64,000 nt of DNA from Asterionella formosa. Taxonomy: Eukaryota. Within the stretch, counting starts at the first letter, position 1; each line of letters begins with the position of its first letter. This document shows, one piece after another, positions 5,213 through 64,000 of this stretch. The notes below the pieces were generated by a model. It saw only the letters and a program-made list of their open reading frames with translations, did not search any database and had not been told where the DNA came from. Made by a program: the position numbers and the translations under genes. The stretch is taken from assembly GCA_002256025.1 (NCBI GenBank), contig NKIB01012547.1, positions 1 to 64,000 on the forward strand. The letters are read 5' to 3'.

Positions 5213-5696
5213 CTTCCGTTCGACTGCGTAAATGCTGCTTGAGGGAGGATCCAATTAAATTCAACAACGTTGAAATATTGTTTGCCGAAGTTGAAATGAG
5301 CGACCCAACTAACTACACACCCTTATAATTATGCTAAAATATAACTAATTATTACACAAAAGGACAACAATTGAAGTTTGGAATATGAACGGTTCTCAAT
5401 CTTACCAGGGTAGGGTCTACCTGGTACCATCATCCTTGTTACGGACAAGCAAAAGCGAGCAGCGGGAAAGTAACGGCTATCTCGTACCCACTACCATGGC
5501 AGGAACCACCGCCAGCGCGCCCAACGAACAGACAATGATCCATCACAAATTCTTCGTAATACATAGTATCAGAAGGGATGTACCGGTAGAGACGGACGTA
5601 CATAAAGTTACATGCTAGGTACCTGGTACCGAGTATATTTGCATATTGTTAGACAGGATGCATACTACCAGGTACTGGTACCTGGTGGGAGTACCA

Positions 5697-5744
5697 CCAT
5701 AACCGTAACCATAACTCTAATCGTAACCCAAACCCTAACCCTAA
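5697..5744 (+). repeat. Degenerate interstitial telomere-like array, 8 hexamers of CCCTAA type
   Basis: ccataa ccgtaa ccataa ctctaa tcgtaa cccaaa ccctaa ccctaa. Confidence 0.7.
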
Positions 5745-5909
5745 CAAGTCATGAAGAGGGCATGTTGTAGTAAGTAATGAAGAATCAAGTCATGTTAGGG
5801 CACGCGTTTGTGTGAATTTCATAAAACAGAAGAAGAAAAAGAATTTTCACTACCTGACTGCAAAGACTCATTCGTTGCAGAGAAGCACAAGCAAATATCG
5901 CAACAAAGC

Positions 5910-6088
5910 AAATATGAATTCTAATCCTAATGTGACTGATCACCCATTACTTGATGATGATTCCCTGACAAATGCGGTACTAGGAGAAGCAGAAATAGGG
6001 GGTAACAACCTGGCAAATATGACTGCTAATGTGACTAATGAACCACTGCCTGATCATGATTCTCTGGCAAATGCGGTAGGAGAAGCAG
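5910..6088 (+). repeat. Imperfect direct duplication (~75-80 bp units at ~5910 and ~6015)
   Basis: caaatatga..ctaatgtgact...tgat..tgattc.ctg.caaatgcggta...ggagaagcag occurs twice; translates as NVTDHPLLDDDSLTNAVLGEA and NVTNEPLPDHDSLANAVGEA. Confidence 0.75.
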
Positions 6089-7845
6089 GTACCAGGAGGT
6101 ACCCGAGACGGAACCAGGGGCACCAGGGTATCTTAGCTAGATTCCCTTGCACCAAGCAAAGTCTTTGCATTCTACTACCTGGTACCTGGAGTAACGATCT
6201 GCATAGTAACAGGTACAACACATTTCTATTCCCTCTGTTCAACTAAAGTTGCAACCAAAGTTTACGGCTTGGCTGATGATCATCAAGCGCAAGCTCTGAT
6301 AATGGAATCTAGCTATGGTCTGATGTGAAGAGGGCGACACATGCCAGGACAATCGATTGCTGGGTTGAAATTGACTAAATGATAGCTTTCTGTTAGAAGA
6401 TAAAATAATAGGATAAGAATGATTAGCTACTAATTACATGGTGTGTTGTGCATTATACTACTACTACTAAGTAGCTACTATGCTTGACATAATCATACTT
6501 ATAGTATGCATTTATCATAGATAAAACAGAATAATTATCATGTGCCAAAGAATTCTGTGCCAATTGCGGTATGATAATAGTACCCTTTATCTTACATTTA
6601 TGATTTTTTTATTTGTAGACATAAGATGATCACCCTTTGCAAACGATCAGTGGGAACTCACCTAAACTAACAACCTACTAGTATAAGTTCTTGTTGCCAG
6701 GCAGTCATAGTATGTAACTACAAGGTCTTTGGAAGCGCCTTAGATATGATTTTCAAATTTTATCCTACTAAACTTCTTAGCAGCTAATTTCTGTATCTTT
6801 GATCTTCATGTAATCTTAAGAAGCAAGTCAGCAGGCTCCTTTGGAGTATTGTTCAACAAGTGCAATAGTTTGAGCAACCCAATGTTTTGTTGACAAACCA
6901 GTAAGCATCTTATTGACCAGCCAGTACTCATCAATCACTTGTAGACTGAATCAGCAGGGTATCTGATAGCATTGTAAAGTTTCCGGTCGCTAGTAGTAGC
7001 TAGTCCAAGCATACTGGCACTAACCTTGTATGATCGAATCCAACAGCCAGATCCTCACCAGCATGCAGAGCAGCCGTTGCACACCATCCAAACAACTTGT
7101 TTTGATATGCCTAACTAGTACTAGGGGCAAGCGCTTTTTAGCAAATAGACATGGCGAACTGCCCAAAGAGGCACAAGCGCCTGTTAGAACTGCTGGCAAG
7201 CAACATGATGAGAATGAAGTTTACGGAAGTAACACTAGCTAATTCACGAGTTCAAAGCATGATCATTATTGGTTAGGACATAAATCGGTATAACATTGCT
7301 TGAATAATTATGGTTGTATCTAGCATATTTAGCCCAAAACGTGAATTTACTCGATTTAACGTTGACTCTAAGTTTTAGGTTGTACCTTTTCATTCGTACG
7401 ACCTGGTATGTAGGAGTAGATATTAGATGTTTCCTCGTACCAGTACCTACTAAGAAACTAATGGCAGTACAGAAAACTTGTTACAGGTACTACATGGCGC
7501 CTGCATACCACACGTTACGCACACTAGTAGCTGAAGTTCGGCGGAATCGGAATCAAGTCAAGATATTTCGAATGCATGGCTGGGCGGTCCCAAGAAAACG
7601 AGCGACACCGGACACGAGTGATGATAACGAAACGAAACTGTCAGAGAAATTACAGTTATTTTCTAGAGTCACTTTAGTATGAATTGAGCGATGCAGCTGA
7701 CTCTTTCGTCACCCTTTCATGGTTATCATCCGGAATCAAGGGTTCCCAAAATGCTGCTGCAGTTCTCGTTAGTAACAGATCAGTGTCTATTACCTACAGT
7801 TGTTTGCACCCCCTCCCAATCCACTAGACGACCTCCAAAAGCACA

Positions 7846-9718: not shown

Positions 9719-10970
9719 TTTCAGTTACAGCCCGAACTTTCAGCCAGGCAACGAAATATATTTATAATACAGCTGCGATTTGAAGAGGTTGTTGTGCCTC
9801 GTCCTTTTGGTGTAAGTGAGACCTTACTTCTTATGTTGCCAGCAACTAGTACTCATGAGAGTCACGTTTTCTGCAATTCACATAACATTTAACTTGACAT
9901 CAACTCGTCAACTTTGTCGCTCGTTGATGATCCTATCAAACAACAGCACTCCCACGGCCTTTTTCCCTGTTCTTGTAGTCTGAAGACAATTTTGAGATTT
10001 CCGTGTATCGTCAACACGATTCGACTCATTCGACCATATGCGCATCCTAAAGAAATTCTTCGATTTGCTTTATCATCAATATTGAACTCATTTGCAGATG
10101 ATTCTGAAATCATCATTGGTATGATACGTAGAGATTCTATGTCAGTAGACATGTGATTACCGGTATTATCCAAACATTACATATACATGCCAGTATGCAA
10201 AACTATAAATGTGGCGAAACCTACTTTACACTTTGTTCAAAAGAAATAAAAAAAGGTTTTTCCAATATTTGTTTTGATTTCTGCGGCTTCTGCTTGGTTT
10301 GTTTTTCTGCTCAATTAAGGCGAACTTCACATAAACCTACCATTGTAACCTGCTATCCTGGTAGGTTTCGTGCCCTTTACCAGGTCCCGGGTCCTTATCA
10401 GTGAGGTATTACAGCTATTATGTGAATGATATGTTCCATCACGCAAGAGTTGGCTGTTTGGTGCATGCAGGAAGGGGCACAACCTTGTTGGCAGACCACA
10501 GTTAGCTATTATATGTGTATCCAAGACGCATATAGTAGTGTTGCTCGGCCGTCTGCCGGTACCTAGTAACAGGTAGTTTGCTGCTTGTAATAATGACTGC
10601 CTCCAGGAGCACGGAAATTCTCCGCGACTTGCTTCTTCCCTTTCAACGCCTGTCCGTCACTCACCTACATGGCGTCACAGCCAATAAATCTTCGTTCGGT
10701 ACCTGGTAATACGGTACTTTATTTTTACGGAGTGCAATAATAATTTCTCTAAAATAATACTCCTACCTGGCTAAATACATCCAATTGTACCGGCAAGTAC
10801 ATGATACCAGGTACCAGGTACCAGGAACCATCGTACGCCTGATAGTTGCACCTGGTTAACAACCAGCAGTTTCCGCTCGTAGCTAGATATCCCTAATAAC
10901 GGGACACGTTTTACACATTTGTTATTTACAATCCCGTACATGGATCGCAGATCATTTTGCAACAACGACC

Positions 10971-13181: not shown

Positions 13182-13651
13182 CTTGCTGAATGGCAACGAT
13201 GACAAATTGATTGTTTGTGATGTTAGATTTATTTCCATATATTGTTTTTTTAGGGGGGGATACATAATGTACTACCGGTATGTATGTGACCGTGTGTACC
13301 TTTACGAGGTAGTCTACGGGTATGAAAATAAAAATAAAAATAAAACAACTACCGGTAGTCGATCATAATCTGTGACGATGTTTAAAAATCTATCGAAGAT
13401 TCAGGACCTCCCAATAATTTACTCTGTAGTACGGTGGTACGGAGTCCATGAGTTTTGTTGTCTAATATCGGGAAAAATTGACGGCTCCTCTGTGAGCGGT
13501 TGGATATGAACATATCATAGTACGCACTGACATCATTATCATCATAATTTAAGTGTGACAATACTTTTTAACAACATACCGGTAGTCGATTTTACCTGAA
13601 CCCTTCTAATATCGTTCTCTGCATCTTCATTAATTACATCAGTGTAATCAC

Positions 13652-14890: not shown

Positions 14891-14957
14891 TCACGTAAAC
14901 GAGGTATCACGCAACTTCATCATATGTTAGATTTTCCCAAGTGCTACTCCCTCTACT

Positions 14958-19616: not shown

Positions 19617-20630
19617 CTACTGGATCAAAGCTTCAGCTCTTAACAAATCATCAGCAGTTCCATAGAATGCCAACTGTGAAACACCAGGGCGGGTTCCTTT
19701 CTCCATGCTTGTTAGTTCGTCAAAAAGTGTGGTAGATCGAATCGTTGGCTGCAATGGTAAACGGGTACTGGCGCCGCTGGCCTCACGGAGTCGATTATAG
19801 CTTGTCATAGCATCAGCCTTTTCCAGAAACAAGGGGAGTTGCACTCCCTTCGATCCTTGAAACGCCAGCTTGTCAGCCACAAACAGGGGTATATCACCAT
19901 CAAGAACCTCCATTTTCATTTCAGCTGCATCCTTCATTGCTTGTTTCGATGGAATGAGCCTATATTGTTTACTGTTGCCGGCCCCTTGACCTTGCCTATT
20001 AATTTCGTCCTCGGCCTGCTGAACTTCAAAAGGCGGTGGAGACATTCGCATGCGACCACGTTTCAGTACTAATGGGTAAGTGACTTGATCCAAGGTGGTT
20101 GCCTTCACAGCACCACGTTCCGCGGCGGCCGCTTGAGCGTCATCATACGTCATGAACAAATCTGTTTTCATTGATCCATCGTCGTTGGTGAGGTAAAATA
20201 CTGGAATTGAATTGAGCTTCTCTTGAATAGACCCTCTCGATAGGCGATACTTGTCACTCTCAAAGTTAGCAAACTTTCCTGGAGTATCTTGCCTGGTCAC
20301 CACAGAGTCTGCGAGTCCCATTGGTGCTTCCTTTCCTCCCAAGAAAGGGAAGAAGGACGTCGACACAAACAGTACAACAATGAAAAGTCCAGCAATGGAT
20401 GCCAATATCCCAGAGCCTTCGCCTTCCCGAGACATGCAGAGAATAAGGGGACGCGCGGTTGGCAACTTGTTGACGTCCGAAGATCCAAAATGCCGATTGT
20501 TTGCAAATCGTTTTCGAGAATTGGGTGCCATGAACGTCGGAGTGAAGCTATCAGCACTCCGCGTAACTAGCGCGAGAGCCACAAAAAGGGAGAGCACGAT
20601 GACATGATTGCAGCAGCAGGGGCGCACCAT
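19617..20630 (-). CDS. Tic22-like plastid protein with an N-terminal hydrophobic helix
   Basis: Signal peptide ending ADS-F, then IQEKLNSIPVFYLTN..G, IPLF and LPLFLEKAD, resembling Tic22 family motifs. Confidence 0.6.
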   Translation of the reverse strand: MVRPCCCNHVIVLSLFVALALVTRSADSFTPTFMAPNSRKRFANNRHFGSSDVNKLPTARPLILCMSREGEGSGILASIAGLFIVVLFVSTSFFPFLGGKEAPMGLADSVVTRQDTPGKFANFESDKYRLSRGSIQEKLNSIPVFYLTNDDGSMKTDLFMTYDDAQAAAAERGAVKATTLDQVTYPLVLKRGRMRMSPPPFEVQQAEDEINRQGQGAGNSKQYRLIPSKQAMKDAAEMKMEVLDGDIPLFVADKLAFQGSKGVQLPLFLEKADAMTSYNRLREASGASTRLPLQPTIRSTTLFDELTSMEKGTRPGVSQLAFYGTADDLLRAEALIQ

Positions 20631-21263
20631 GGTCAATAACTTTGCCAAGAATGTGCGCTTCTATGATATCAACACGGTAGATATTCATAAACTACCGGTT
20701 AACATACCGGGAGACTACCGGTATGTAATCTAGCGGTAGTCAAAATTCTAAGTTGAGATGATCCACATACTTTGTCGTTCATAGGTACCTGGTACTTAAA
20801 TATGTATGTATGATCATGATACCATCAGTATTTCATTTCATGTCCAAGATGATGGCCACAATGCTGGACCTTCTGTACGTACAAAATAAATATACACACA
20901 TATAATAGGTATAGTACCTGGTACCAATACTACCGGTATATAATTATCATCGATGATTCCCTGAGGTACTGACTGGTAGCTGGAATAGTACCTGGTATCT
21001 ATATCAGGGGGTACCTGGTACCCTGGCAGGGTTTACCGGGGGGGGGACCACCTATTCATACTGGAAAATGTTTATTGAAAATAGACCCTATGTTGAACTC
21101 CAAAATGATCCAGGAAAGACCCCAGACACACATCGCTTCGGGCTCCTTCCTTCTTGTTGCTTTCATGACACCTGCGTGCATGGTGGCTGTTTGATTCAAA
21201 TGGTTGACGTCATACTGTCAAGCTACGGGAGAAGACCAGACTACCTGGTACCAGAAATCGATA

Positions 21264-21363
21264 CCAGCAAGTTGCGGTACATAATAGTGCTGGAACTAAA
21301 AGTTTAGTTTTCTTTATCCCATATTAAATTATTTGTTTAAGCAAAATGACCGCAACTTACAGG
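21264..21363 (+). mobile_element. MITE copy 1 (Tc1/mariner-like, TA target)
   Basis: TA|CCAGCAAGTTGCGGTAC...GCAAAATGACCGCAACTTACAGG|TTA; terminal inverted repeats; homologous to the copies at 44664 and 44863. Confidence 0.75.
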
Positions 21364-21693
21364 TTACCACAGCGTGGATACGTAGTATATAATTTTAGCG
21401 GTGGTTTCCAATGGTGTACCGGTATATGAAGTACAACGCCGCGCATTAGGAAGTATTGGAATGCACTATGGCTACCGGTATGTGGCTGAGTTCAAACGGT
21501 CGCTAACCGCATCTGACAATACTTCGGGGTAACAAAAAACGCGTGAGGTCCATCGTCTGTCTATCCGTCCACCCAAACTTACCTCTTACCTGTTTTCCAT
21601 CAAAATCCACTCTCCTGCTCTCGTATCCCGACAATCAAATCCACCGCAAGTGTGCATTCTCCTTGTCCATCCAAGCTAATCCTATTTATCAAG

Positions 21694-22481
21694 ATGAGCA
21701 CTCAGAAGATCCGAAAAGCTAGTGGTGTGAGTAGAGTGTAATTCTGTTAACTAACTGCACGGTTTTGTGGGAAAAGAGCAAGCGGAATGAGTTTATCAAT
21801 GTGAAAGCGTCCATACCTTTGCGCCTTTTTTGTTGCCACTCCCTTGTGGGTTGTGAGACAGCCACGACAACCCTCTACACCGATATTGATCAACGTGCGA
21901 AGATGATTAAAAAAGTGGTGCTGACACCCTTTTCTCTTTGCCCATGACAGGAACCCGATGAGTTTGAGGCCTCGGTTGCCCAGGAGCTCCTCAACCTTGA
22001 GATGACGTCAACGGAACTCAAGGCATCCCTTCGTGATTTGTACATAACTGCGGCCAAGGATGTTGACTGTGGTAACGGCAAGAAGGCTATCATTATCTAC
22101 GTTCCATTTAAACTGTTGACGTCGTTCAACAAGATTCAAATGAGACTTGTTCGCGAATTGGAAAAGAAGTTTTCTGGACGTCACGTCATTATTGTTGCAC
22201 AAAGAACTATCTTGGGCAAGACTTATGCTCGCGACCAAAAGACGAAAGGACCCCGTCCTCGTTCCCGCACTCTTACTGCCGTGCAGGATGCCATCTTGGA
22301 CGACATTGTTTACCCTACCGAGATTGTTGGAAAGCGCACCCGCGTAAAGGTTGATGGCAAGAGAATCATGAAGGTGTTTCTTGACAGCAAGGACCAGGCC
22401 AATGTCGAAGGAAAACTCGAGACCTTTGCCGCTGTGTATGGAAAGCTGACCAACAAGCAAGTTTCATTCTCCTTCCAGTAA
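21694..22481 (+). CDS. RPS7: 40S ribosomal protein S7 (eS7); intron 21727-21950
   Basis: [28 protein letters not shown]...[12 protein letters not shown]...[10 protein letters not shown]...VYGKLTNK. Confidence 0.97.
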
Positions 22482-22572
22482 GCGGATAAGTAATTAAGCA
22501 AAGCGACCAAACCATCAGCGACGACGTTTTACATTTGTTTACACCCCTATTGTATATTTACTATTCTGTACA

Positions 22573-24357
22573 CTATGCTCTCAGTTCGAGAATACCGGTA
22601 CTGTTGTGCCTTGACATGGAATCTGTAGAACCATACAGACTGTCTGATTTATCCAACATTTTCTTAGTTCCCCGAGACGATGGTCGATGCTTGTCGGAGT
22701 ACAGCTCAAATGCTGGTACACCCAATAAAAATACAAGAACCACGAATTGAACAAAATGTAAATGTCTCCAGAACCCGTGCGTACACGTTACATCGTCCTG
22801 AGAAAGGTGACAAGTCCCGTTCACTGCAAGCACAATGTCGGCAATGTAGAACTGGGCGATTCCCGATAATGTAAAGCCAATGCCGATCAAAATCCCATTG
22901 TATTTAAAGCCCATTTTGGAAGTCAGACATGCGATGTAGACAGGGAAAAGGAACTGGCGAAATAAAGAGTATAGGAAGAATCCAACGATCAGCATGTTGG
23001 GTTGTTTGCTGAAAACTAGCAAAACCAGAATTTGCAAGATACCGGTCACCAGCGTCAATGCTGTACAAGTTTCGAGACCGATAATGTCCATTAGAAATCC
23101 AATGACGATGCTACCTAGGATGCCAAAGGAGCAGATGATGCTGCAAAATGGACGGCATGAAGGAACAGTGAGTAAAGGCGACAAATACGTACATGTTGAA
23201 CGGTCTCGAATAGTTGGTTTTAACAGCCGAATAATGGGATCATACAACGCATTCATGGAAACTTACGTAAAAATCTTTGCAAGTTGGTGTTGGTAATCGG
23301 TTGAGAAGTAATTCTGGTCGCCCAGTTCTGTTGTAAGGGAAGCAACATAAAAGTTTGCCATGAATGAGGTGCTAATAAAGACTAAAAGAATGCGTAGATA
23401 TATCCAAGAAAATAGTTGTCGAAGAAATGGTAAATCTTTGACACTGACTCGTTGCAAGTTTCCAGACTCTATCGCCTCCCTGGAAAGGATAAATGATTCG
23501 TGTCTGTCTAGCTGGTGATGTGAATTGGATCGAAGAAAGGAACTCATCGGGGCCTCCACCAAGTGCTTGGCGAATCGAAGTAAGGGTTCTCTCCTGTCTT
23601 GCTGGGTAGGTGAATTCGATTGAAGAAAGTAATTCCTCGGGACCTCAACCTGTTGATGAATGGCGAACCGAACCCTTTCTTCTTCTGATACAGCGTGGCA
23701 TGGAGAATTGGAGTTTTGTATTCTACTAGGCTTGTCATCCATGTCCTCTACAAGCTCGAACGGCGTATCTGGCCACAGCAGCAGTGCCCCTATCGCACAT
23801 AGTACAAGCACGTATACGTATGAGCTAAACATGGCCCGCAATCCCATTCCGTAGTTATTCCAAAGAAAATCGAAAATGGGCAAAATCACAAATGATAGTG
23901 TGATACTCCCACTCAAACAACTAATCACCAAAAACCGACTGTCGGGAAAGAGATTAGCAATATGAATGACTGCATTCGAAACCCCAGGGCTTCCAAATGA
24001 CATCATGCAAGCCCCGATAGCAAAATACCGGTACGTTTGTGAGACAGCAAAAACTTGGCAGCCAATAGCAATGATAATGTTGCTAACGACGGAACACAAT
24101 CGGGGCCCGCCGACATATAGAACATATCCTAACAGCAGTGATGAGAAGAAACCTGTACTCATTGCTAAGCCGAATATTTTTGTAGTCTCATCCATTGTCA
24201 ATCCAGCGCCTCCTTCGTCGAGGGGTGCGATCAGTAACGTTGTCGCTACAGAAGCCCATCCAAAGAGGATTCCTGCCACTAATGTGGTCTGCATGCACCC
24301 AAAGGCGAACAGTAGTACGCGTCGCTTCGTCGGAGGCCGATCTGGTGGTTCTATCAT
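22573..24357 (-). CDS. MFS transporter, SLC43/LAT3-like; intron 23141-23266
   Basis: AGILFGWAS, GPR, about 12 TM helices in two halves with a long central loop, FRQFLF. Confidence 0.78.
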
Positions 24358-25537
24358 GGCGAAATGGATAGAGACAGTAAAAATCAGGAAAGACGCAACC
24401 GAGGGTATGGGCTGAGGCGAGAAAGGAACTAATTGAGAGGCAACGACGGTTCAGAAAAGAGTTTTGATATCTTTTGCCGGTATTAGTGTTCTACAAAGCA
24501 ATTCTGACTACCGGTACCGGTATGATATTTAGAAAATATTTTTACAAAAATGATATCAACCGGTACGTAGTATTTTACATACGACTCAAAGCAGTATCGC
24601 TCGGCGAATTTCATGTCCGCTCGTGGGTGGACGAGGATGTTCTGCTTGGCTAGTGATCCATTTTACCCCCAGCAGGATTTCAAAATTACCGGTATGCATC
24701 TTCTTTGTTCACTTGCTTGGCTGTCGTTTTGGGTCCACGGCGGCGTTACATAACAGTTAGAACTGCGGTCTCCCTTGGCACACGGGTCATATGCACAGTG
24801 TCTCAAAATTGTAAAATAATTCATACTAGGTACAAGGAATGCAGGAATACCGGTACGGACTAATGCATCTATAAATCTTTGGTCACTCGACTATCACAAT
24901 TGTTTACTGGCATTATTAACAATATAAAAATTACTGAATGTTGTTTCAAAGATAAGACATAGGGAGGGGTCTACTGTTCTGTGTAAACAAAGTTGTTAGG
25001 TACTCACCTGGCTACATAATCTGTTATTAGTTACTCCACCGTTACACTGGTATACCTTGCAGCCCCTGGTACCAGGGTACCTGCTACCAGGTACCAGGTA
25101 CCATGGCTAAAGGACCTGTTGTGCCTCCAGGAAACTGCTTCCTTCCGTATTGTGTCTCCACCACATACATTTAATTACATGGAAGTAGACAGTCTTCCAA
25201 TAATGATGACTCTAAGTTGCACACACATATAATGAGGGTACCAAATCATGTATTAGACAGACATTTAGACATTTGAAGAACTAGAACGGCGATAAATCAT
25301 AACAACAAGATCAATACACAGATTTGCCGACGCGGGTCTGGTCTCTCTTGTATTCTTTTCTTTTGTTGCGGTGGACCCATTTCTGTTGCTCTCTTCTTAT
25401 TCATTTCCAAAGCACCCTAAGTTGCAAACATTTGTCCCATCGTGAGCACAGAAATCGCTTGACATTTGATACAAGGTATCTGGGATCCTTCGAAACGCGA
25501 AAGACTAGGAGGCCCAGTGGAATCGAGTCGCCAAACA

Positions 25538-27487: not shown

Positions 27488-27675
27488 TAAAGAGCCAAGT
27501 TGTCTGCCTTGCCGGTGCAGGAAACTATATGGTATATAGTATGTTGCTTACATCATGGGATTGATGATTTTGGAGTATTAAATGTGTGGTTCGTTTTGAG
27601 GGCGTAGCTAGTATGTATGTGTACAAGCGTGTGTGTGTGTGTAGGCTAATATGTATAGGAAGTGGACAAGTCAAG

Positions 27676-28110: not shown

Positions 28111-28593
28111 GGCGTAATTGTCAAGTCCTTGCGCTTATTCTATATATTTATTAAATTTCAGAAGCCAGCAAAATGATTGCCTGTGTTACCGGTAGCAGGT
28201 ACCGGTACGTTATTTGTCATGCCGGTAAACACGTTATGACTGCACTTAATTCTTGTCTGTATGAAATAGTACATACGGTAATGGGGGCGGCGCTCGTCTG
28301 AAAATCTGAATTAAATTTTGCTTGTGCCAAAAAACTTAAACTTCAACACTCCTTCTATTTTTGGGGTGGTGATTTGATATGATATATACAGCAACTAATT
28401 ATAATAAGAACATTGTTGTGCTCTTGCTGATCATAGACTAAAATTTTAAAAATAAATTTAACTTAAAATTTTATACCTAGTATGACTACCGGTAATCATC
28501 TTCTCGATTGTGTACAGGCAGAGCAGTTTACTTGTTATGCCTCCTGTTGTTAATGATAAATATTTTTATTGTAGTGTATCAAATTATCCAAGA

Positions 28594-30680: not shown

Positions 30681-31814
30681 TTTGGAATAAACCGGTATTC
30701 TTGCTTATGGAGTCTGATGGTGTGTTTGCTGGACGGATTGATGCAATTTCGATTGCGAATAGCGAAGCAATACCCAAATATCACAGGTATGTTGGTGCAG
30801 CAGCTCGAATGGTAGACGAATGTAACAGACGATTTCTGTCATCCCCTGGACTGTCCTAGGTACAAATAGTACGATATATGGATACTTCTACCTTCTACCT
30901 ACTACTCCTGCTACCAGGTACATACTATCAAAGCAATAATATTTTACTTGATCATACAAACGTACCGGGGGGACTATGTAGACAGACCTATGTACCGACA
31001 CAGTTTTTAAACAAGCAGGATGATACTCAAGGGATGTCAGCTTTAAAAAAAAATCTACCGGTATGTATTGCCGGTAATGCCGGTACCAGGTAATGGTAGT
31101 CCATTGCCGTTCTTTACCAGGTATACCGGTAGTCCGTGAAAGAAGGTTACCTGTTTGTCTGTACCGGTGTATGATACCAGCACACATCAAACTATCTGCT
31201 TGTATGTACGTCTGTACCTGGTACCGTATGATCATTTGTATGTACCGGTAATTAGCATCTTTTATACTGACTGGTTTGGGTTAGGTAGGGGTACACTATC
31301 AGGTACTGCTCGGTTGCTTTCCAGTTGCACGGAAACAATTGAATAGAGGAGGTAAACCGGTACTCTTACATGTCAAAATACACAGAGTGAAGAAAGGATA
31401 AAATGAGATGAGAGATGTGGAGAGAGAAAGGCAACAGATGTGTGAATGTAGACATGTATATTTCAAGCATGTCAGGCAGTTCATACGGGTTTCCCTATGA
31501 AACAGTGTTATGTCTTCTTCATTGGTCACACAACAGATCTAGTAAGATTGGATAATTTGTAATAACATGAACTATAAGGACAATGTCTCATGAAACTTTC
31601 CTTTATTGCCCTCCTCATCAGCTTTTGCAAACCCAACATGCAGATATCACCTGTGCATGTGACTACGTTTACAATTCACATAGATTAGCGTATTGAATAC
31701 TTTCCTCCCTTGTCTGCATACCAATCTGCCTAAAGGCGTACTTCTATCTACTCGTCGCACAAATACACAGATTGCAGTCCAGCTGCAACTACAGTGCGTA
31801 CCAGCTAGCTCATG

Positions 31815-32822: not shown

Positions 32823-33758
32823 TGTGCTTGTTGGGACGTGTAGCTTACTGAGAGGGACAAATGGCGTTTAGGTGCTGCTGCTACTGGTACTGGTACCGGT
32901 ACTTCGACTGTTGTTGTTGCCTTTTGTACGAACGAGTTTGAAAAAGGTAATAAATCAAGTTGTATACCGGTACCGGCATACGCAAACAAAATTGTTCTTG
33001 GGCGGATTCCGCCGTATCATGCGTGATCGCTCATCATTGTGTCACCACAAAGAGTAGGCGTGGTACCAGTACCTGGTACCCCATCATTTACCAGGTATAT
33101 TGGTGTGTTTCCTAATGGTTACTCCTACTACATACAAATTCATAGCTACTTCATTTGGGCTTGACTTGTTCTCAACTGGCTGTGCGTAGTATCAAATGTC
33201 CTGTGACTACCGGTACCGCTACGTACCTGGTTCCGAAAAACATACATTCCAATTTGTATAATATATATTGCATTGTACACAAAAAAGAAGCATAAGAAAA
33301 ATTTGTATGACAATCATAAACAATTATGGCTGACGATGCTGCGCGCAACTATGGCGTCATTCTCGGTCTTACGTACGTTTTCATGAAGGAAGGATATAAA
33401 CAACCATCTAAAATAAAGTGTAAAAATGGAATGACCATCTTTCCATCTTCTGCTGCTGCTGTTCGATTGCAAGAGAACAGGTACCGGGTAACTTACTCTA
33501 CTTGTCCACCGTCCCAGGCGTCAGACGTCTAGTTGTACTGTAAGAGAAGCCCTGTTTTACAAAAACAACAAGACAAAACCGCTGGAGGTTTCATATAAAC
33601 ATAATTCCTGCCTGCAAAAGTTAGACGTTACTTTTCTCAGTGCACTGCGCAGCATTGGCCCACTGCTCTATAGTATGAGGACTGTGTTTCGATGCCATTA
33701 TATCCAATAAATATTACACATTTAATAATACAAGGAAATCGATGAGGAAAAGCTGATA

Positions 33759-35390: not shown

Positions 35391-35419
35391 AAGAAGTAGG
35401 CGCACTATAGCCTATTGCA

Positions 35420-39571: not shown

Positions 39572-39890
39572 TGTGCGAGGTTCAATCTCAAAGACAAGGC
39601 ACTCTCGACGCTTCTACGACCATGTGTTGCCGTAATATATGGCATGCAAACCAAAAAGTGAGGTTTGACTACATACCGTACACTAATGCACAATCCGAAT
39701 ATTGGACTCGGAGGACATACTGGTAGTTTGTAGACAACCTGTTGCTGGTACCTGGTACCTGGTACAGGTACTATTAGGTACGCGCTCCCATCAGGGGGAA
39801 TCAGCGAGGTGAGTCCATTCTAAGGTTCCGGTACCAGGTACCAGGTACTAGGTACATGGAGTACCAGGTACCGTAACGGGTATTGGTACA

Positions 39891-44442: not shown

Positions 44443-44663
44443 TGTTCACAACAACTATGCTATAGTTGGTGACTTGGAAACAAAGCAGAGTAAAAATGGT
44501 TTCGAGCCTTATTTACACCTTTCATAAATAAAATAAAATGTTTTGACATGATTGGCAAAAGCAAAGTGTAAGCTCTGCATACCGAATTCGACCACGAGGA
44601 CAGCATCACTGTTACTACCGGTAAACAAGATGATATAAACCTTGGATGATATTCTCCCAGGTA

Positions 44664-44776
44664 CTTGCAAGTTGTACCGGTAGTCATTTTGCTTTATGCA
44701 GTTTCTCATGTCTGTGGCAACAAGGGATTAAAAAGGCTAATTATTTAGCTTCAGCACAAGTACCGCAACTTGCTGG
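44664..44776 (-). mobile_element. MITE copy 2 (inverted relative to copy 1), TA on both sides
   Basis: The reverse complement of its right end, CCAGCAAGTTGCGGTACTTGTGCTGAAGCTAAA...TAATCCC, aligns to the copy 1 left end. TA at 44662-63 and 44777-78. Confidence 0.75.
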
Positions 44777-44862
44777 TACCTGGTACCATGTACATGGTAC
44801 CCACCCTTTACCGATAGTATGAACAAGATGTCTACCCGCCAGGTACTGCAGGACCGGGGGTA

Positions 44863-44959
44863 CCTGTGCAAGTTGCGGTAATTTTGCTGAAACTAAAGAT
44901 TTGGCTATCTTTGTCCAAGATTATGTTAGTTTCAGCAAAATGACCGCAACTTGCTCTGA
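44863..44959. mobile_element. MITE copy 3 with 29-bp inverted repeats
   Basis: GCAAGTTGCGGTAATTTTGCTGAAACTAA (from 44868) versus TTAGTTTCAGCAAAATGACCGCAACTTGC (to 44954): 28/29 complementary. Confidence 0.8.
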
Positions 44960-45408
44960 TACGGTACCAGGTAGTGCAGTATTCTGTAACCATTATGCAT
45001 GGCGGATGGTATTTATTACCAGGTACCTGGTACCACGTACTGTGTCTAGAGGTTGCTGTGTTTACCCCTAGCTCGAGGTAGGGTTTTAAAAATATATTGA
45101 GTCAGACTAATCAAACGCGTACTCTTCAGGTATTAAAATGCTTTCACCATTACCGGTAGACACCCTTTTCTATTTAAGCAAAGACTATGCTAAATATCTC
45201 AATTATCGGACCTTCAGGGCAACCTAGGTAGCGGTATATTGCATGGACCGGGGAGTACAAGCAAGATTAGCCGTAACTCTATGCTCCTTGTACATCAGCC
45301 ATGTTGATGTTGAAAAGATTTGCCCACGTCGTTGCTTGCTTTGCTACTAAATTCATATAGAGGTTTCTCGCCCCGTGCTTGCCCAAGATCCATTCTGTCG
45401 ATTCGACC

Positions 45409-46452: not shown

Positions 46453-47176
46453 NNNNNNNNNNNNNNNNNNNNNNNNNNNNNNNNNNNNNNNNNNNNNNNN
46501 NNNNNNNNNNNNNNNNNNNNNNNNNNNNNNNNNNNNNNNNNNNNNNNNNNNNNNNNNNNNNNNNNNNNNNNNNNNNNNNNNNNNNNNNNNNNNNNNNNNN
46601 NNNNNNNNNNNNNNNNNNNNNNNNNNNNNNNNNNNNNNNNNNNNNNNNNNNNNNNNNNNNNNNNNNNNNNNNNNNNNNNNNNNNNNNNNNNNNNNNNNNN
46701 NNNNNNNNNNNNNNNNNNNNNNNNNNNNNNNNNNNNNNNNNNNNNNNNNNNNNNNNNNNNNNNNNNNNNNNNNNNNNNNNNNNNNNNNNNNNNNNNNNNN
46801 NNNNNNNNNNNNNNNNNNNNNNNNNNNNNNNNNNNNNNNNNNNNNNNNNNNNNNNNNNNNNNNNNNNNNNNNNNNNNNNNNNNNNNNNNNNNNNNNNNNN
46901 NNNNNNNNNNNNNNNNNNNNNNNNNNNNNNNNNNNNNNNNNNNNNNNNNNNNNNNNNNNNNNNNNNNNNNNNNNNNNNNNNNNNNNNNNNNNNNNNNNNN
47001 NNNNNNNNNNNNNNNNNNNNNNNNNNNNNNNNNNNNNNNNNNNNNNNNNNNNNNNNNNNNNNNNNNNNNNNNNNNNNNNNNNNNNNNNNNNNNNNNNNNN
47101 NNNNNNNNNNNNNNNNNNNNNNNNNNNNNNNNNNNNNNNNNNNNNNNNNNNNNNNNNNNNNNNNNNNNNNNNNNNN
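46453..47176. other. Assembly gap
   Basis: Run of N. Confidence 1.
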
Positions 47177-50922: not shown

Positions 50923-52330
50923 CTAGCGACAATTGTTCGTTGGAAAGCAAAATGTAGCACACTGATGCCTGCTCTTATTGATGAGAGCAAAGTCCAGTAC
51001 AGATGATCAGGCAAGGAAGAAGTATTGGGAATGATGATAACCCTGCATTAGTGGATAGAGGCGACTTCGAGTAGGAACGATAAGAGGGTGGCTGATAACA
51101 AAAGCTCGATTGATATTGCTCCCCCGGGAGAACTTCTGCCAGGCAAGAAATGTTTGTCCTCCTCCCCTTAACAATTTCTATTTGGTCCTCTTCTTTCCCG
51201 CTCATCATTTCAATCATTTCAACAACGACTCATTTCTAAATTGATGGCTGGTTCTTTCTTGCATTCAAGCCTGAAGCTCAGAACCTATTATCTCCGCGTG
51301 AGCGAACGTCAAGCAAGCAACCACGAAAGAATTCTGCCCTTGTTACTAATTTCTACTGCGTACCCGTACCGGTAGCTATCATACCGGTATGTGGTACCGG
51401 TATTTACTTTGCTTGTTATGTAGTATTCATGGCTGTTGGTATCATTCCTCACCTTTTCTTCTACTGTACGGAAAATTCTACCCGTAGTGGAAGCTAGTGC
51501 ATTAGCAATTAACTACCGGTAGCACCGTGTACAAAGCTAGTAAGGGAAAAGTACCCGTCGGTTCATCACCAGTCATGCATTGCGTAGGAATACCGATACA
51601 TACATGTATGCTGACAATGGTTAATCATAGATACTCCGTATATGAAATAGAGCTTTCAAGGTGAAAATATTCTGAGGATATGTTTACTGGTGATGGTTAT
51701 GATAAGTCTTTAGGCATCTTTACAAGTGCAAGAACATGTAGGCCACCACAACTGTTTAACAAAACAATATATAGTGCAGCTTCAAGTTTGGATGAAAAAC
51801 TATTTGCTGATAGGCAATATTGCATGTCAAACTGGGTCACATAAAATGGCTATGATCTCCATGACTGTGTGTTCTACTCCGGATTACCAGGTACTTGAAA
51901 ACTGATTACCAGTACATCGTATCTATCCCTTTTTATCATTTACAATAAAGTTCGTATTGCTGCCTTAGTTCAAATTTTATCTTTTAAGAAACTTTGATAA
52001 TTTTAATCATAAGATGGGGTGATAAAACAATGGCTCTGTTTTTAGGTGGTACCCTGGTATCTTGATTTAGCTACCCACTATATCTTACAGCAAATTTATC
52101 CTGCTTGTTCGCTTTTATAGGGTACATCTTCTTTATTTGGTTTTTCTGTTGGTTCCTGCCATGTAGTAGTTGATGATTGACACTGAGTATATGAGTCACC
52201 TCCTTATTATTAAACCATTGGCAATGAAGCTTGTAGAATTATGGCGTCTATGGTACATGGTACACTTTGTCCGCCTCCCAACATGATAAATATGCTCAAT
52301 ATTTAACATCGTCAACGTTGTTGCCCAAAC

Positions 52331-54175: not shown

Positions 54176-55207
54176 GGTGTTGGTGCAACGAGAAGCCACT
54201 CTGTGATACACTGATCTGAGCACACCGGTATAGTACGGGATAAATAATATTCATGTGAACAAAATGCAATCATGCATTGGCCTTGTTGTATTTGCTTTGT
54301 TGCCATTACCAGGTACCGTATTTCATACTTGTGTGGTCATTAGCTCGAGTCACGAGGATTGTGGACTCGATTGTAATCCAACGAGTCGAATCTTGCATTG
54401 CCACTTCAATCAGCTATCTAACAAGATCAAAGATTGAAAATGGAAATGGAAAAATGAAGTGGAAATTCGAAGAGAGACTTAGAACGACGTTGCGGGAAGC
54501 AAATATGCACAGAAAGGAAACATTTAGTTTAGCTTATAATTTTAGATCATCAATTGAGGAAAAAGTGTGTTAATTGACAGAAAGGTTAATTAGTTTATCT
54601 AGCAGGAAGGCTAGAAGCAGAGGAGAGAGAAAATTAAGTGGTACTCCATACTAGGTAGTACTACTAGCATCTAAGAGTCTACATTTTAAAAAAAACCAGC
54701 CTGCAGGAAGGAGTATGGACCTTTTTAACCTACAGTACGGAGTAAGTATTAGTCAATGGTCTATGATAGCTAAATTCTCTTTGTCCTGAATATGTTGGGT
54801 TGACCCTATGCACAGCAGCGTTCTACTAGTAAATGGATTGGGTCCCAATGTATCCAAAAGCCTCCTATCACACCTCCATTCCAACTCCCACCAATCAATT
54901 CTAGTACCTGGTACTGGTTCTGGTTCTAACAGCTCAACCTTGACAGCATGCTCATTAAAATAAAGCCTTCATCTGGAGGAGAAGGTCAAGTTTAGACATA
55001 ACAGTTCAGGTCAAACCTAACACAGCAAGCGAGTGGTTTCATGCTTTACAGCTTTCTTTGAAGAAATAACGAGGTACATACATTACTATGAGATAAAAAT
55101 TTAAAAATGAATGCATTGTTTACTAATTATTTTATACAGTCCGTAGAAACTGATTCATCTCCCAACGGTGAAACTAAAGAGTACATCCCTGCTACTTAAT
55201 GGAGCGC

Positions 55208-56864: not shown

Positions 56865-58325
56865 GGTTCTCAATGCAATCAACTTTGAGGTCGACTTCGA
56901 TAAAGTGAGAAGCGGCAATCGTCCAATTGAAGACTTTAATGACTAGACTACCCAGCGTCTTGGACCCATTATTTGTACCACCTGCTACCACTGGTTTATT
57001 TAGAGATGAATCCAATAACCGCTATGCCCGTACATAGATTTGGTCTCGACAACTGGCCAGCGTGGACTTGACTGCCCGGCTGGGGATGACGTTGAGTTTT
57101 CCGTTGAGATCATTGAATGTCAATGGCGATGTATACTGTAGTTACAAAGCAGGCCAGCAAGGAGGGGCCTCTGAATATCCTGCCAGTTCGTGCAGCTCGT
57201 ACACGTTCATTCAACCGTTGGAATCTGAAGCACGTGTAGTTAACTGCCATACGTAAGAGTGTTTCCTGGTACCAGGTACCTGGTACCAGTAGGTAACGGG
57301 AGTGTTCCACAAACAGATAATGTTACGGGGGGGACATACCGGTACTCTATGATACCAAGGTACCCAGTACCAGTACCTGACAGTATCAGGTCGGAATTAT
57401 CACATGTCGCATGCCACATACCGGTAGTCCCTATATTTTAGTCAATGCTATCTGTGAAAAATAGACGCTGTGTGCCTGCATGTTACTATTCGTTAACCAC
57501 ACAGCCATGCCCTTTATGAGCATGGCGCAGATTCCTTCTTGAGTTGCTGAGACTTCCCGTTAAGCTATCGTTCAAGATGATATCACTGTCAGTTCATCCA
57601 TGCTCGAAATAAAAACATATCTTAAGTACGGCATTGATATAGCATATAAACATGGTCAAGCTTTCATTGCATTCATCAATTGTCGCTCCCATTTTCCCAA
57701 TCCGTATCATATCTACAAAATAGGGGAGATGTGTGTAAATCTCCATCGGGTGAACAGAAATGGGATATGTTCAATTATATAGCACCCTTGTCTCCTCAGT
57801 AACGGTGGCAGTTTATTTTGAAATATACCCGTGGGGATTGATTTTATTGGTTGCTTGGGCATGAAATAACGGTCGTAGTCGTCAGGGTGTTACCATTCCC
57901 CAGCACATGATTGCAGCTCTAGAGCAAGCGAGACTAGACTGGATTTGCAGAGATTGAATATCATGTCTAAACGATAGGTGATGCAGGTGATAGCGATCTA
58001 CGACAGCAGCTACCGAAACTAATTGTCCCTGGTACCAGATACGGTATAGTATAGGTTACATGTATAGCAGGAATATCGAGTACAACAACTGAAGTTTGGG
58101 AAATAGTGCAGTATATAAGAAAACGCTCCAATTTTATCGCGTTTTTATGTATTCAAATATGATCAATGAATGACAATCAAGTCTAAATGTTGCCCAAATA
58201 ACGTTCACGGCGACCTCATTTTTGCTCGATAGTACCCGGTTCACGAGCAATGTATGCAATCAACAAGAAAAAGCATTTTATCTGAACTAAATAGAACTAG
58301 AATAGCATTTGGACAAACTGTTTCC

Positions 58326-60739: not shown

Positions 60740-61291
60740 NNNNNNNNNNNNNNNNNNNNNNNNNNNNNNNNNNNNNNNNNNNNNNNNNNNNNNNNNNNNN
60801 NNNNNNNNNNNNNNNNNNNNNNNNNNNNNNNNNNNNNNNNNNNNNNNNNNNNNNNNNNNNNNNNNNNNNNNNNNNNNNNNNNNNNNNNNNNNNNNNNNNN
60901 NNNNNNNNNNNNNNNNNNNNNNNNNNNNNNNNNNNNNNNNNNNNNNNNNNNNNNNNNNNNNNNNNNNNNNNNNNNNNNNNNNNNNNNNNNNNNNNNNNNN
61001 NNNNNNNNNNNNNNNNNNNNNNNNNNNNNNNNNNNNNNNNNNNNNNNNNNNNNNNNNNNNNNNNNNNNNNNNNNNNNNNNNNNNNNNNNNNNNNNNNNNN
61101 NNNNNNNNNNNNNNNNNNNNNNNNNNNNNNNNNNNNNNNNNNNNNNNNNNNNNNNNNNNNNNNNNNNNNNNNNNNNNNNNNNNNNNNNNNNNNNNNNNNN
61201 NNNNNNNNNNNNNNNNNNNNNNNNNNNNNNNNNNNNNNNNNNNNNNNNNNNNNNNNNNNNNNNNNNNNNNNNNNNNNNNNNNNNNNNNNNN
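60740..61291. other. Assembly gap
   Basis: Run of N. Confidence 1.
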
Positions 61292-62184
61292 TGTAGGTCA
61301 TATTACGGAGACAATATCCATTTTTCTGCATGAGGATGATTGGCTTACTCGAAAAATTTGTTTCTTTACATAAACTTGAGCATAAGAACTCTGTTTCTGT
61401 AATTAAATAAATTAATCGAAACCATTTGAAAATGATTTTAAACATAAAGTGTACATGCATTTTATCACACAATGCTGTTTTACATCGGCCAGTAACTTAA
61501 ATATTTGCGGAAAACCGAATAAAAATTGTCACTACTATCATGCTTATAACATGAATAGCAGAACAACTGGCTGTTGTTCCATAAACTTTCTATGGTTGTC
61601 ACATTGGCATTGACAATACTGCCCAATATTTATTGGTTCCAATCCTCAAAATGAGCATTCCATCATTTTCTTCCTTCCCATCATCACCACTTTTGCGCAG
61701 TTGATAATCAAAGGCAAGTTGCTGTAGTTCCATTGTTACATCCAATTTTGTATGTATGTTGAGAACAGATGGTTCGAAAAAATGGGTCCTCATGCACCTC
61801 CATTTTGCTTGCAATATAGCCGAAAGGGAAAATCGTAAATGCCCAAAAATGTTTTTTACATGTAGTTGGCAATTTTAAACTTTCTACATATTATATAGAT
61901 ATATCTGTTTCTTTACTTAAAGCAAAGTGCACAATACATATGGCAATTGAGCCATGGAAAATCAGAGCAGTCAAAATGGCTCTGGAGAATTTTAAGAATC
62001 TCACAATTGTTTTCGCCCTGAGGGAGTACCAATTTAATAGTTCTGGCAATGTTTTACTCCAAACCAGGTTTAGGCTGGGGCCACAACCTTTAGTATACAG
62101 CAATACACAACTGGGGAACCTTTATATGCTAGACTCTATTATTTCATTAGTACCCAATTTTTCTTCACAAGGAGCGTGACCAGG

Positions 62185-63778
62185 TTACACAAAGTATTCA
62201 CCATCCACATTTCTAGCGTACCCAGCACCAGGTGTACCAAAGAGAATTCTACTACTCAGGACACCATCCAAAGTGGTGACCGCTCTTTGTAGTGATTGAA
62301 GGTTTGCAGTGCTTCCATCAGCAATGACTGGATCGATATCCAGCACATTGTAGGCAATCTCTCCCCTCGACTGGTTGATTTGCTGAACAATATTCAGATG
62401 GGCCTTGGCGAAAGTGTCAGTAATCTGAGCAAGCATACCAGGCTTATTCTTGTTCACAACAGTCATACGAATAGTCCTTGTTGGGCGATCAGGCAGAGAG
62501 GTCGAAGGGAAGTTGACGGAGTTTCGAATGGTTCCACTTTCCAGGTAATCTCTAATAGTATCTGCAGCCATGGAAGCCTGTAGGGAATTATGGTGTGGAC
62601 GTGTTAGATAAAGTAATGCTTCTAGAATCGTACGCCAGAATCAACCCAAATGAATCGTTGCACTTACAGCCTGATCTTCGGCTTCCTCCGTAGATGCTCC
62701 CAAATGAGGAAGAATGATAGAATTCTTGTGATCCCAGAGAAGATCATCAGGAAAATCAGAAATATAACGACCATCTCCAGAATCAAGGAATTCTTTCATG
62801 GTAGCAGAATCGACAAGCTCGCCACGGGCAAAGTTGAGAAGCACAGCATCACTTTTGAAATGAGCAATCACATCCTTTCCAATAATGCCATGTGTACCCC
62901 CTTCACCCTTGATGTACGGTATATTAATGGAGATGTAGTCGGCATTCGCGCATGCAGATGCAATCGAATCGACAAGGTCAATTTGACGGGGTAGCTTAAG
63001 AGCGGACGCGATCGAGAGTCCAGGGTCGTATCCGACGACTTTCATTCCAAGGCGATTAGCATCTCGGGCAGTGGCGGCTCCAATATGTCCTAATCCAATA
63101 ATAGCAATGGTCTTGCCAGCAAGTTCTCGTCCCCCAAACATGGCCTTGTCCTTCTCCACTCGTTCCTTGGCCAATCCCTGCTTTCCGAGATCCTTCATGT
63201 GGTTGATTCCATCAATCACACGTCGACTTCCGAGGAACAAACCACACAGGATCAGTTCCTTGACAGCATTTGCGTTGGCTCCAGGTGTGTTGAATACTGG
63301 GATACCGAGTTCGGTCATGCGGGAAACGGGGATGTTGTTGGTTCCTGCACCGCAACGAGCAATGGCGCGAACAGTAACTTCGACTTCCTCTTCTTTGAGT
63401 TGGTATGAACGCACTAGGAGAGCATGAGCCGGTTGTGGAGTATCGGCGGCAGCATCCACTTGATAAATATCCGATGGGAATCTGGCAAGTCCCTGTGTTT
63501 CGCCAAGATGAGAGGTTAGATTCAGCGACGAGGGCATTGAATGTCTTTCGACTTGGTGTTACGAAGAAGAAACGTATTCTTACAGTTGGCGAAATCTTGT
63601 TGTATGTCTGCACGTGATACTTGCCCGACTTGGTAAAGTCCTTGATGTCGTCAATGTTCCAACCGGACGTGTAATGATCGACATCGATGGGGATTGGGCC
63701 CCCGCCGGTCAGAAGCCGGATGGACCCAGCTCCAAAGCGAGAACTGGTGTTGGTCAGGATTCGTCTGGACAACAGCAT
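62185..63778 (-). CDS. serA: D-3-phosphoglycerate dehydrogenase with ACT domain, mitochondrial-type presequence, 3 exons
   Basis: ARCGAGTNN, NTPGANANAVKE, GLGHIG, NFARG, PHLGASTEEA, NSVNFP, ACT-like NKNKPGMLAQI; N-terminus MLLSRRILTNTSSRF. Confidence 0.93.
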
Positions 63779-64000
63779 GGTGTATGTGGTGATATGATGT
63801 GATGGGAAGGGAAGGGAAGCTAGGAGGTACCTGGTAGCAGGATTGGTCGTCTAGATTCATGCAAGCAAATCGAATACTCCAGTTATTGTCGGAGACATGT
63901 CGAACCTGCGCAGCTGCTCGGAGGTTTGGCGGAGCGCGTCGATCGGATGGTGAAGGATGATAGTTCGCGTCGAGTACCGGTAGGACCCATCAAAATACCA

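Follow-up and report, generated by a model that had tools for sequence, protein, structure and literature searches.

Two TA-bounded palindromic words upstream of genes in Asterionella formosa as candidate transposon excision scars

The two most over-represented words in a 64,000-nucleotide stretch of Asterionella formosa DNA (contig NKIB01012547.1, positions 1 to 64,000; from here on the window) are both perfect palindromes bounded by TA: TACCWGGTA, with W being A or T (nine-mer), and TACCGGTA, that is TA-CCGG-TA (eight-mer). Both are concentrated on the 5' sides of genes, partly chained into arrays, and the eight-mer varies as a whole word between lake populations at sites where other haplotypes carry a single TA. 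These words may well be the excision scars of TA-targeting cut-and-paste transposons, the candidates being a miniature inverted-repeat transposable element (MITE) of about 100 bp with CCAG...CTGG ends and an autonomous partner that was not seen.

Abundance, form and position of the words

The first-pass annotation of the window had described an excess of TACCWGGTA, and this excess is real: 38 exact matches are present against 0.31 expected, a number reached in none of 100 dinucleotide-preserving shuffles (mean 0.31, maximum 3). The eight-mer, which that annotation did not mention, also has 38 matches against 0.31 expected (0 of 100 shuffles), and both words stand at the top of an unbiased k-mer ranking of the window. 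They are sharply defined, with one-mismatch neighbours occurring 0-5 times each for the nine-mer and 1-13 times each for the eight-mer, compared with 38 exact copies of either, and the outer TA is as invariant as the core. The centre of the nine-mer is A in 18 and T in 20 cases, never C and once G, TACCSGGTA having only one match in the window. Among non-coding words of the form TA-X-TA, X is CCGG in 35, CCTGG in 19 and CCAGG in 18 cases, followed far behind by CTGG (7), CCAG (5) and CAGG (4). Longer forms are also found, specifically GGTACCWGGTACC and the one-sided extension TACCGGTAGTC, with ten occurrences each. The flanks of the two words differ: G precedes the word on 54 of 74 sides for the nine-mer and on 20 of 76 for the eight-mer, GG/CC adjoins about 40% of the sides of isolated nine-mers, and partial neighbouring units are present in nine-mer flanks, while the eight-mer prefers AC...GT or a one-sided GTC. 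A further word, TATGATA, occurs at 15 sites (e.g. 6570, 10120, 24521, 43034/43039 and 57348) and, as a non-coding TA-X-TA word, 14 times where 2.9 would be expected. It may represent a GATA-type site or a scar from another TA-targeting element.

Positions relative to genes were counted for both words combined, using a gene map based on open reading frames (ORFs) and Pfam matches. Divergent spacers hold 47 words in 10,333 bp (10 spacers, about 4.5 words per kb), tandem spacers 19 in 9,163 bp (8 spacers), convergent spacers 4 in 4,465 bp (10 spacers, where about 15 would be expected at the density of promoter-bearing spacers) and genes 4 in 37,566 bp; the terminal spacer upstream of the last gene adds 2. 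Within tandem spacers, 17 of the 19 words lie in the half proximal to the ATG of the downstream gene (one-sided binomial ~4e-4). Distances to the ATG are broad, ranging from 88 to 967 bp for the nine-mer and from 11 to 682 bp for the eight-mer. Thus, the words mark gene 5' sides rather than intergenic DNA generally. The earlier description of the nine-mer as occurring in most intergenic spacers fits divergent spacers (7 of 10) and fails for tandem (4 of 8) and convergent ones (2 of 10), whereas its rarity in coding sequence is borne out, the sole genic nine-mer (1 of 38) being located at 27717 in the tail of a DUF1971 gene. One RNA contig spans the words at 33070 and 33089, so some words may be in transcribed leaders. 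Two eight-mers inside the coding sequence of a major facilitator superfamily (MFS) transporter (22593 and 24026, region 22593..24033, minus strand) were examined by protein alignment as possible coding footprints. Neither corresponds to a two-residue insertion, and both align without gaps to homologues (e.g. QTYRYF vs QTYPYF); they are therefore considered chance occurrences outside the phenomenon. The word clusters and arrays of the window are as follows.

5418..6184: nine-mers at 5418, 5620, 5666 and 6176 and an eight-mer at 5581, upstream of a RING-finger gene (ATG ~5254, minus strand)
10158..10830: array (TACCAGG)x3 at 10805-10827, preceded by a nine-mer at 10700 and an eight-mer at 10158; the downstream gene starts at 10971
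13273..13584: eight-mers at 13273, 13350 and 13577, two of them in the longer form TACCGGTAGTCGAT; the divergent spacer (386 bp) separates transaldolase and aldo-keto reductase genes
20716..21480: nine-mers at 20786, 20915, 20989, 21012 and 21242 and eight-mers at 20716, 20931, 21417 and 21473, in the divergent spacer upstream of the S7e gene
24509..25103: eight-mers at 24509/24515 (a 6-bp chain), 24687 and 24848, and a mixed 7-bp array at 25065-25103 with nine-mers at 25085/25092
28187..28494: eight-mers at 28187, 28200 and 28487 in a 426-bp divergent spacer
30912..31250: nine-mers at 30912, 31084, 31115 and 31215 and eight-mers at 31056, 31124 and 31243, polymorphic at 31094 and 31124
32878..33231: eight-mers at 32894, 32965 and 33208 and nine-mers at 33070 and 33089, polymorphic at 33146, 33222 and 33092/33093
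39745..39872: two inverted arrays, 39745-39771 (CCTGG type) and 39825-39872 (CCAGG type), stopping at a run of N
44616..45158: nine-mers at 44777, 44965, 45017 and 45024 and eight-mers at 44616, 44675 and 45151, upstream of genes for a bestrophin-like and a chlorophyll-binding protein
51367..51893: in a tandem spacer, whose ATG-proximal part carries eight-mers at 51367, 51382, 51395 and 51514 and a nine-mer at 51885
54307..54913: two nine-mers of a tandem spacer (54307 and 54905)
57258..57426: array of mixed centres (T, A, T, A) at 57258-57289, followed by eight-mers at 57337 and 57419
63828..63982: on the 5' side of the last gene (ATG ~63537, minus strand), a nine-mer at 63828 and an eight-mer at 63975

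All six chained examples named by the first-pass annotation were found again (10805/10812, 25085/25092, 39749/39756, 39832/39839/39862, 45017/45024 and 57270/57277). Tandem Repeats Finder reports 7-bp arrays at 10805, 25068, 39745, 39830, 44773, 45017 and 57268 and a 6-bp array at 32878. The two arrays of 39745-39872 form an inverted pair, with 32-nt arms that are 84% complementary and lie 53 nt apart. Among 17 pairs of adjacent array units, picked regardless of the centre letter, the centre differs in 9, whereas the six remaining positions differ in 9 of 102 comparisons (~9%). This discordance is a better fit to independent coin-flip events, or to long selection ignoring the W position, than to fresh slippage. 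The earlier argument from mixed A/T centres against slippage is supported to that extent. Exact chains through a shared TA hold only 12 of the 38 nine-mers, the other 26 being solitary, and nearly all eight-mers lie outside exact chains.

Word-sized polymorphism and a matching MITE family

The region 19881-39880 was compared with aligned contigs from three DNA sequencing runs of three other studies (X4, X6 and X7) and one metatranscriptome (X8). Across these 20 kb, 147 substitution places between X6 and the window are listed, and 6 of the 12 indel rows listed are whole-word indels or changes at word sites. At 33146, X7 carries an extra CCGGTA at a plain GC-TA-CT site that is without it in the window, X4, X6 and X8. 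X6 shares the neighbouring single-nucleotide polymorphisms (SNPs) of X7 and does not have the insertion, so parsimony favours a gain in the lineage of X7. At 31124, the window and X7 have TA-CCGG-TA beside GTCC where X6, X8 and part of X4 have a single TA (-6), and at 31094 one X4 haplotype has an extra CCGGTA (+6) at a TA beside GTCC where other haplotypes have one TA. The latter two events are of the same kind as that at 33146, and both adjoin TAGTCC. Thus, a TA present on both sides of the inserted letters in one allele and a single TA in the other, as in Tc1/mariner footprints, were found at three sites, none of which has a pre-existing repeat to slip on, and the identical six letters recur at these unrelated sites. 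At 33222, a 7-bp unit is doubled in X6 and X7, creating a new nine-mer; this +7 change is a tandem duplication that slippage explains equally well. A complex +4 change is found in X8 at 33092/33093. The comparison of haplotypes proposed by the first-pass annotation, which predicted 7-bp gains of CCWGG plus TA, therefore supports TA-duplicating word gain in a different form: every clean de novo event is a 6-bp change of CCGG type, none being of CCWGG type, which limits that prediction. Three listed non-coding SNPs fall in or beside words (28187, 31093 and 33219); the X4 T>C change at 28187 breaks the first eight-mer of its spacer, and 33219 separates an exact from a decayed word. A 21-bp insertion relative to the window at 28174, shared by all three DNA runs, reflects either a deletion or an assembly error in the source of the window.

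The candidate element is a nearly palindromic sequence of about 100 bp with terminal inverted repeats (TIRs) of about 30 nt (consensus CCAGCAAGTTGCGGTAATTTTGCTGAAACTAA), present in the window in three copies of 100-120 bp. Its termini are CCAG...CTGG, that is CCA...TGG on one strand, and not CCA...AGG as first proposed. TA is found at four of the six ends, the right flank of copy A being TT and the left end of copy B irregular, and no empty site was observed in the contigs.

21262..21365: MITE copy A, TA at 21262-21263, element at 21264-21363, TIRs CCAGCAAGTTGCGG / CCTGTAAGTTGCGG
44657..44778 (approximate): MITE copy B, right end ...CCGCAACTTGCTGG to 44776 and then directly TA-CCTGG-TA-CC, with the eight-mer 44675 in the irregular left end
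44861..44961: MITE copy C, TA on both sides, degenerate termini

With its TIRs, small size and high copy number the element resembles Stowaway-like MITEs. The bin of copy A gives the highest depth spike in all runs, summed contig depth rising from ~900 to 119,981 in X4 and from ~5.5 to 369 in X6 and reaching 262 in X7, which is 50-130 times baseline in the three DNA runs. The array bins also spike, and 4,667 X4 contigs align to these 20 kb, of which 2,679 are only 90-95% alike. Depth and contig numbers together indicate that the genome contains many copies of both the MITE and the arrays. Among the 15 joints listed in the contig comparison, 7 link the right end of the MITE (21355-21364) to array sequence at 25076 or 39742-39832, and the intervening letters show that at several different loci 0-20 bp separate a MITE end from an array; other genomic MITE copies thus abut arrays. 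The end letters CC+GG, CCA+GG and CC+TGG reproduce the three dominant words, a match of only two to three letters per side that could be a chance agreement. Within the window, words outnumber resident MITEs about 25 to 1. A scan of the window for TA-flanked TIRs returned only the inverted arrays at 39749-39847 and a segment at 2804-2956, and no second MITE with CCGG ends. The latter segment is a second MITE candidate of 153 bp with 16-nt TIRs (1 mismatch), ends unrelated to the CCAG MITE and a position in the word-free first 5.4 kb.

Origin of the words

If the words are excision scars, they could have formed as follows. Insertion would duplicate a target TA, and excision by staggered cuts would leave two or three terminal bases per end, CC or CCA on one side and GG or TGG on the other. 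Joining of two-base tails would yield TA-CC-GG-TA, while three-base tails overlapping by their mismatched last base would yield TA-CC-W-GG-TA, with the mismatch resolved to A or T about equally. The element would land mainly in open DNA upstream of genes, selection would remove scars from coding sequence, and each scar would add a TA next to CC or GG, such that repeated hits, possibly together with slippage, would build the 7-bp and 6-bp chains. We infer that the MITE or its partner is the source, and likewise where the cuts fall, which targets are preferred and that arrays seed themselves. This scheme agrees with the identity of the three dominant words and of the MITE ends, with the strict TA, with whole-word polymorphisms that duplicate TA and with the 18:20 centre, since a mismatched overlap should be resolved like a coin-flip, and the nine-mer flanks are compatible with a preference for GG-TA-CC, a site duplicated by each event. 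Passages of PMC4561436 describe mariner and Stowaway elements as inserting at TA, duplicating it and, upon excision, retaining both copies of the target-site duplication along with TIR-derived bases. According to passages of PMC7827188, Sleeping Beauty and mariner transposases nick 3 nt inside the element and footprints formed by non-homologous end joining equal the overhangs.

A number of observations weigh against excision as the origin of the words. Among 77 ORF translations of the window (12 plus 65 of 147 stop-to-stop ORFs of at least 90 amino acids, the 82 left out being mostly alternative frames over identified genes), none was found to contain a transposase domain, and none of the 15 joints listed represents an allele pair of MITE and scar. 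The interpretation of the first-pass annotation is partly supported, by whole-word indels, a matching MITE and centre discordance. CCATGG, the full product of two three-base tails, occurs fewer than three times between TAs, and CCA/CCA tails would have no base-pairing overlap, so that the dominant nine-mer would not be predicted by simple microhomology. Two words with different flanks imply that one element with one target preference is insufficient and that two elements or two processes are involved. Copy B of the MITE contains word-like insertions where the consensus has no TA. The indel findings come from contigs rather than reads and from 12 of 37 indel rows, and all three +6 events could formally be explained as deletions between TA/TAC microhomologies of 2-3 bp. 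The confinement to gene 5' sides is equally expected of a cis-regulatory site. Finally, two exact words dominate, a uniformity unlike messy natural scars: in passages of PMC4423477 only 8 of 94 natural excisions in rice are clean, the remainder showing deletions or filler, and passages of PMC3770610 describe mariner footprints as often non-canonical and dependent on cell type.

Alternatively, the words may be cis-regulatory palindromes bound by a dimeric protein that tolerates a half-site spacing of 0 or 1 (W), with selection keeping them exact and slippage or local duplication clustering them; the association with the MITE would then stem from a preference of the element for open promoter DNA or for GG-TA-CC. 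We hold this to be a real but distinctly lesser possibility. Perfect palindromy, a sharp consensus, the extended forms and the crowding on gene 5' sides (divergent spacers with 47 words in 10.3 kb vs convergent ones with 4 in 4.5 kb, and 17 of 19 ATG-proximal in tandem ones) are what such sites would show, and a degenerate W position under selection would also yield discordant centres. New sites should, however, arise by point mutation, yet three CCGGTA insertions were found at plain TAs. Further, the SNPs in or beside words give no sign of constraint, albeit in a small sample, the distances to the ATG are broad for a regulatory site, and the outermost TA is as invariant as the core. Searches of the literature for the literal strings of the words and their longer forms returned only primers and unrelated sequences and no paper on these motifs, and the titles and abstracts listed for diatom promoter motifs and diatom MITEs contain nothing on these words.

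Comparison with other diatoms bears on both explanations. A metagenome scan for relatives of the locus yielded 80 loci, of which the closest (85% identity) is a transcript-sized contig of 1.4 kb; the remaining loci are 48-74% identical with spacers that cannot be aligned, hence only words were counted. In 29 genomic-size loci of other diatoms found through transaldolase (245,058 bp), the nine-mer occurs once, about the chance level, so that the location upstream of genes expected of a transcription factor site is not accompanied by enrichment across species for this word. The abundance of the words is lineage-specific. The eight-mer is mildly enriched in the same set, about 3-fold (10 vs ~3.5 expected from a composition estimate, two of the loci, L016 and L017, being the same sequence), and 7 of the 10 are followed by G. 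At 3228-3265 of L016, identically in L017, an 18-bp unit containing CTACCGGTAGTC is present in two tandem copies (CTACCGGTAGTCAAGG x2) in non-coding sequence, with a gene about 330 bp downstream, and its one-sided GTC extension is common to 10 eight-mers of the window. This hints at an older, perhaps functional motif, a further point against excision and in favor of a cis-regulatory role.

Two other explanations appear improbable. The words might be 6-bp and 7-bp micro- or minisatellites seeded from GGTACC-like sequence that grow, shrink and decay through replication slippage alone, without a transposon. The arrays reported by Tandem Repeats Finder, the tandem +7 polymorphism at 33222 and the partial units in nine-mer flanks are all in keeping with this. 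However, 26 of 38 nine-mers and nearly all eight-mers lie outside exact chains, changes within tandem copies account for one of four clean events, the other three being +6 changes at non-repeat sites, centres are discordant in 9 of 17 pairs against ~9% elsewhere in the unit, and neither the recurrence of one exact word across dozens of unrelated loci nor its promoter restriction is explained. It is similarly doubtful that the words are pieces of a larger transposon family, such as terminal or subterminal repeats, possibly transposase-binding sites, persisting as decayed fragments in promoters. This would explain the inverted arrays of 39745-39872, where the TA-flanked TIR scan picks out 39749-39847 as maybe one small element, and it agrees with MITE ends lying 0-20 bp from arrays at several other genomic loci. 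Most words, however, are solitary with unrelated flanks, decay would not spare exactly 8-9 bp while neighbours differ, and gains of a whole 6-bp word at a plain TA are not decay. Three further mechanisms were rejected. Hairpin (P-nucleotide) footprints of the hAT type would be palindromes of the flanks and not a fixed word, ectopic gene conversion is unlikely with a shared homology of only 8-11 bp, and a repair bias linked to methylation or of the very-short-patch type acting on CG/CWG cannot make 6-bp indels.

A bolder version of the transposon scheme, which we regard as rather unlikely, holds that a still-active TA-targeting family writes stereotyped scars into promoters at a rate that made them the most over-represented words of the genome, that these scars turn over between lake populations, that arrays grow autocatalytically through renewal of the preferred GG-TA-CC-type target by each scar, and that the palindromes are perhaps used as promoter elements. 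Later co-option of scars as promoter elements would reconcile an origin by excision with a cis-regulatory role. Excision scars, MITEs and promoter palindromes are each already known. New, as far as the library of papers searched is concerned, is that two stereotyped TA-bounded scar-like words are the most over-represented ones, occur at several per kb in promoters, are chained and are polymorphic between wild populations. Excision scars are usually regarded as rare and messy by-products. If the words are scars, diatom regulatory DNA would be subject to cut-and-paste transposition as a major, sequence-specific source of mutation, k-mer counts alone would suffice to read the natural record of transposon activity, and in case of co-option the scars, not the elements, would be a mass source of new cis-regulatory DNA. 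If they are binding sites, they would represent a dominant undescribed promoter element in an ecologically important freshwater diatom lineage, with unexplained indel turnover. In either case, the words probably break assemblies and are relevant for promoter building and annotation in these genomes.

The surrounding window and comparison with known systems

The window represents a compact, pennate-type diatom genome with long ORFs, nearly without introns, encoding ordinary eukaryotic and plastid-type products. Based on ORFs and Pfam matches, these include transaldolase, an aldo-keto reductase, a chlorophyll a/c-type antenna protein, ribosomal protein S7e and MFS, MatE and amino-acid transporters. 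The best named relatives of the transaldolase are from diatoms (Seminavis and Fistulifera at 75-77%, Chaetoceros at 70%), and the best named relative of one MFS protein is from Fragilaria crotonensis. The stretch is present in 20 of the 24 sequencing runs listed, which belong to 13 studies, mostly of freshwater or lake metagenomes. An intron is found in the 5' part of the S7e gene, where an RNA contig omits 224 bases (21727-21950, GT..AG ends) upstream of the ORF. No Rfam family match was obtained across the whole window.

Several features of the window stand apart from this general picture. Positions 1-5400 contain neither kind of word, despite two spacers of 147 and 1,677 bp; strand composition there shows an AT skew of -0.17 to -0.18, and its ORFs are without a Pfam match. 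A single long gene with multiple exons, or a distinct chromatin domain, may occupy this part. At 5696-5745, adjoining the word-rich 5666-5690, about eight imperfect ACCCTA / ACCGTA / ACCATA units form an interstitial telomere-like repeat. At 36297-36342 (~46 bp), summed contig depth reaches 64,339 vs ~900 in X4 (DNA) and 22,211 in X8 (RNA), and the leftward continuation of the other copies is fairly consistent (agreement 0.85). This segment is a transcribed dispersed repeat unrelated to the words and has no Rfam match. Three runs of N are present (39891-40494, 46453-47176 and 60740-61291), two of which have word-rich edges: an array ends at the left edge of the first and a nine-mer begins three bases past the second. 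These positions point to assembly breaks caused by the repeated words, although the stretches may have been masked on other grounds.

Similar strings also occur in prokaryotic and viral records. A scan of genome contigs for the chained word returned at least 103 stretches, all in prokaryotic records, with no usable diatom contig among the matches listed; three of them (0.6-1.1 kb) are possible eukaryotic contaminants that are too short to use (L141, L163 and L178). Arrays that include GGTACCWGG units are found in six prokaryotic records that are mostly metagenome-assembled (L185, L137, L133, L160, L161 and L169), L160 being a complete Cellulomonas chromosome and L185 carrying 11 nine-mers in 639 bp. 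Many of the other matches listed come from Acidimicrobiia and Gemmatimonadaceae. The arrays could encode a repeat protein, be other repeats or represent contaminant DNA. Viral contigs contain the chained word at three loci, two of which (L081 and L082) are phage-like with the words within coding DNA. Matches of the MITE TIR pattern in viral contigs (10 loci) were rejected, each being a single chance match in DNA of different G+C.

Compared with known systems, the words resemble in form the footprints of Tc1/mariner elements and Stowaway-type MITEs (Sleeping Beauty, mariner, Osmar/14T32), where a duplicated TA flanks two to three terminal bases per end. In the canonical scar of Sleeping Beauty the central base is either of two complementary letters. 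The A/T centre found here resembles that scar, and a TA-flanked TIR MITE with matching end letters is present. Different from these footprints are the density of about 4.5 words per kb, the ratio of words to resident elements of about 25:1, the 6-7-bp chains, the two word types with different flanks, and a uniformity that contrasts with the heterogeneous natural scars described in passages of PMC4423477 and PMC3770610. Homotypic clusters of palindromic transcription factor sites share with the words their palindromy, upstream position, clustering and one degenerate central position, and differ in that the words show whole-word TA-duplicating indels, an invariant outer TA and a lineage-restricted abundance. 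HIP1 of cyanobacteria is an example of the highly iterated short palindromes of prokaryotes. Like HIP1, the words are exact 8-9-bp palindromes that are by far the most over-represented of their genome; unlike HIP1, they belong to a eukaryotic nucleus, are kept out of coding DNA, have TA at their borders, are associated with a MITE and vary by indels. Microsatellites with units of 6-7 bp likewise form head-to-tail chains and vary by unit length, as at 33222 (+7), whereas the words described here mostly occur as single copies, are gained at non-repeat sites and have discordant centres about half the time.

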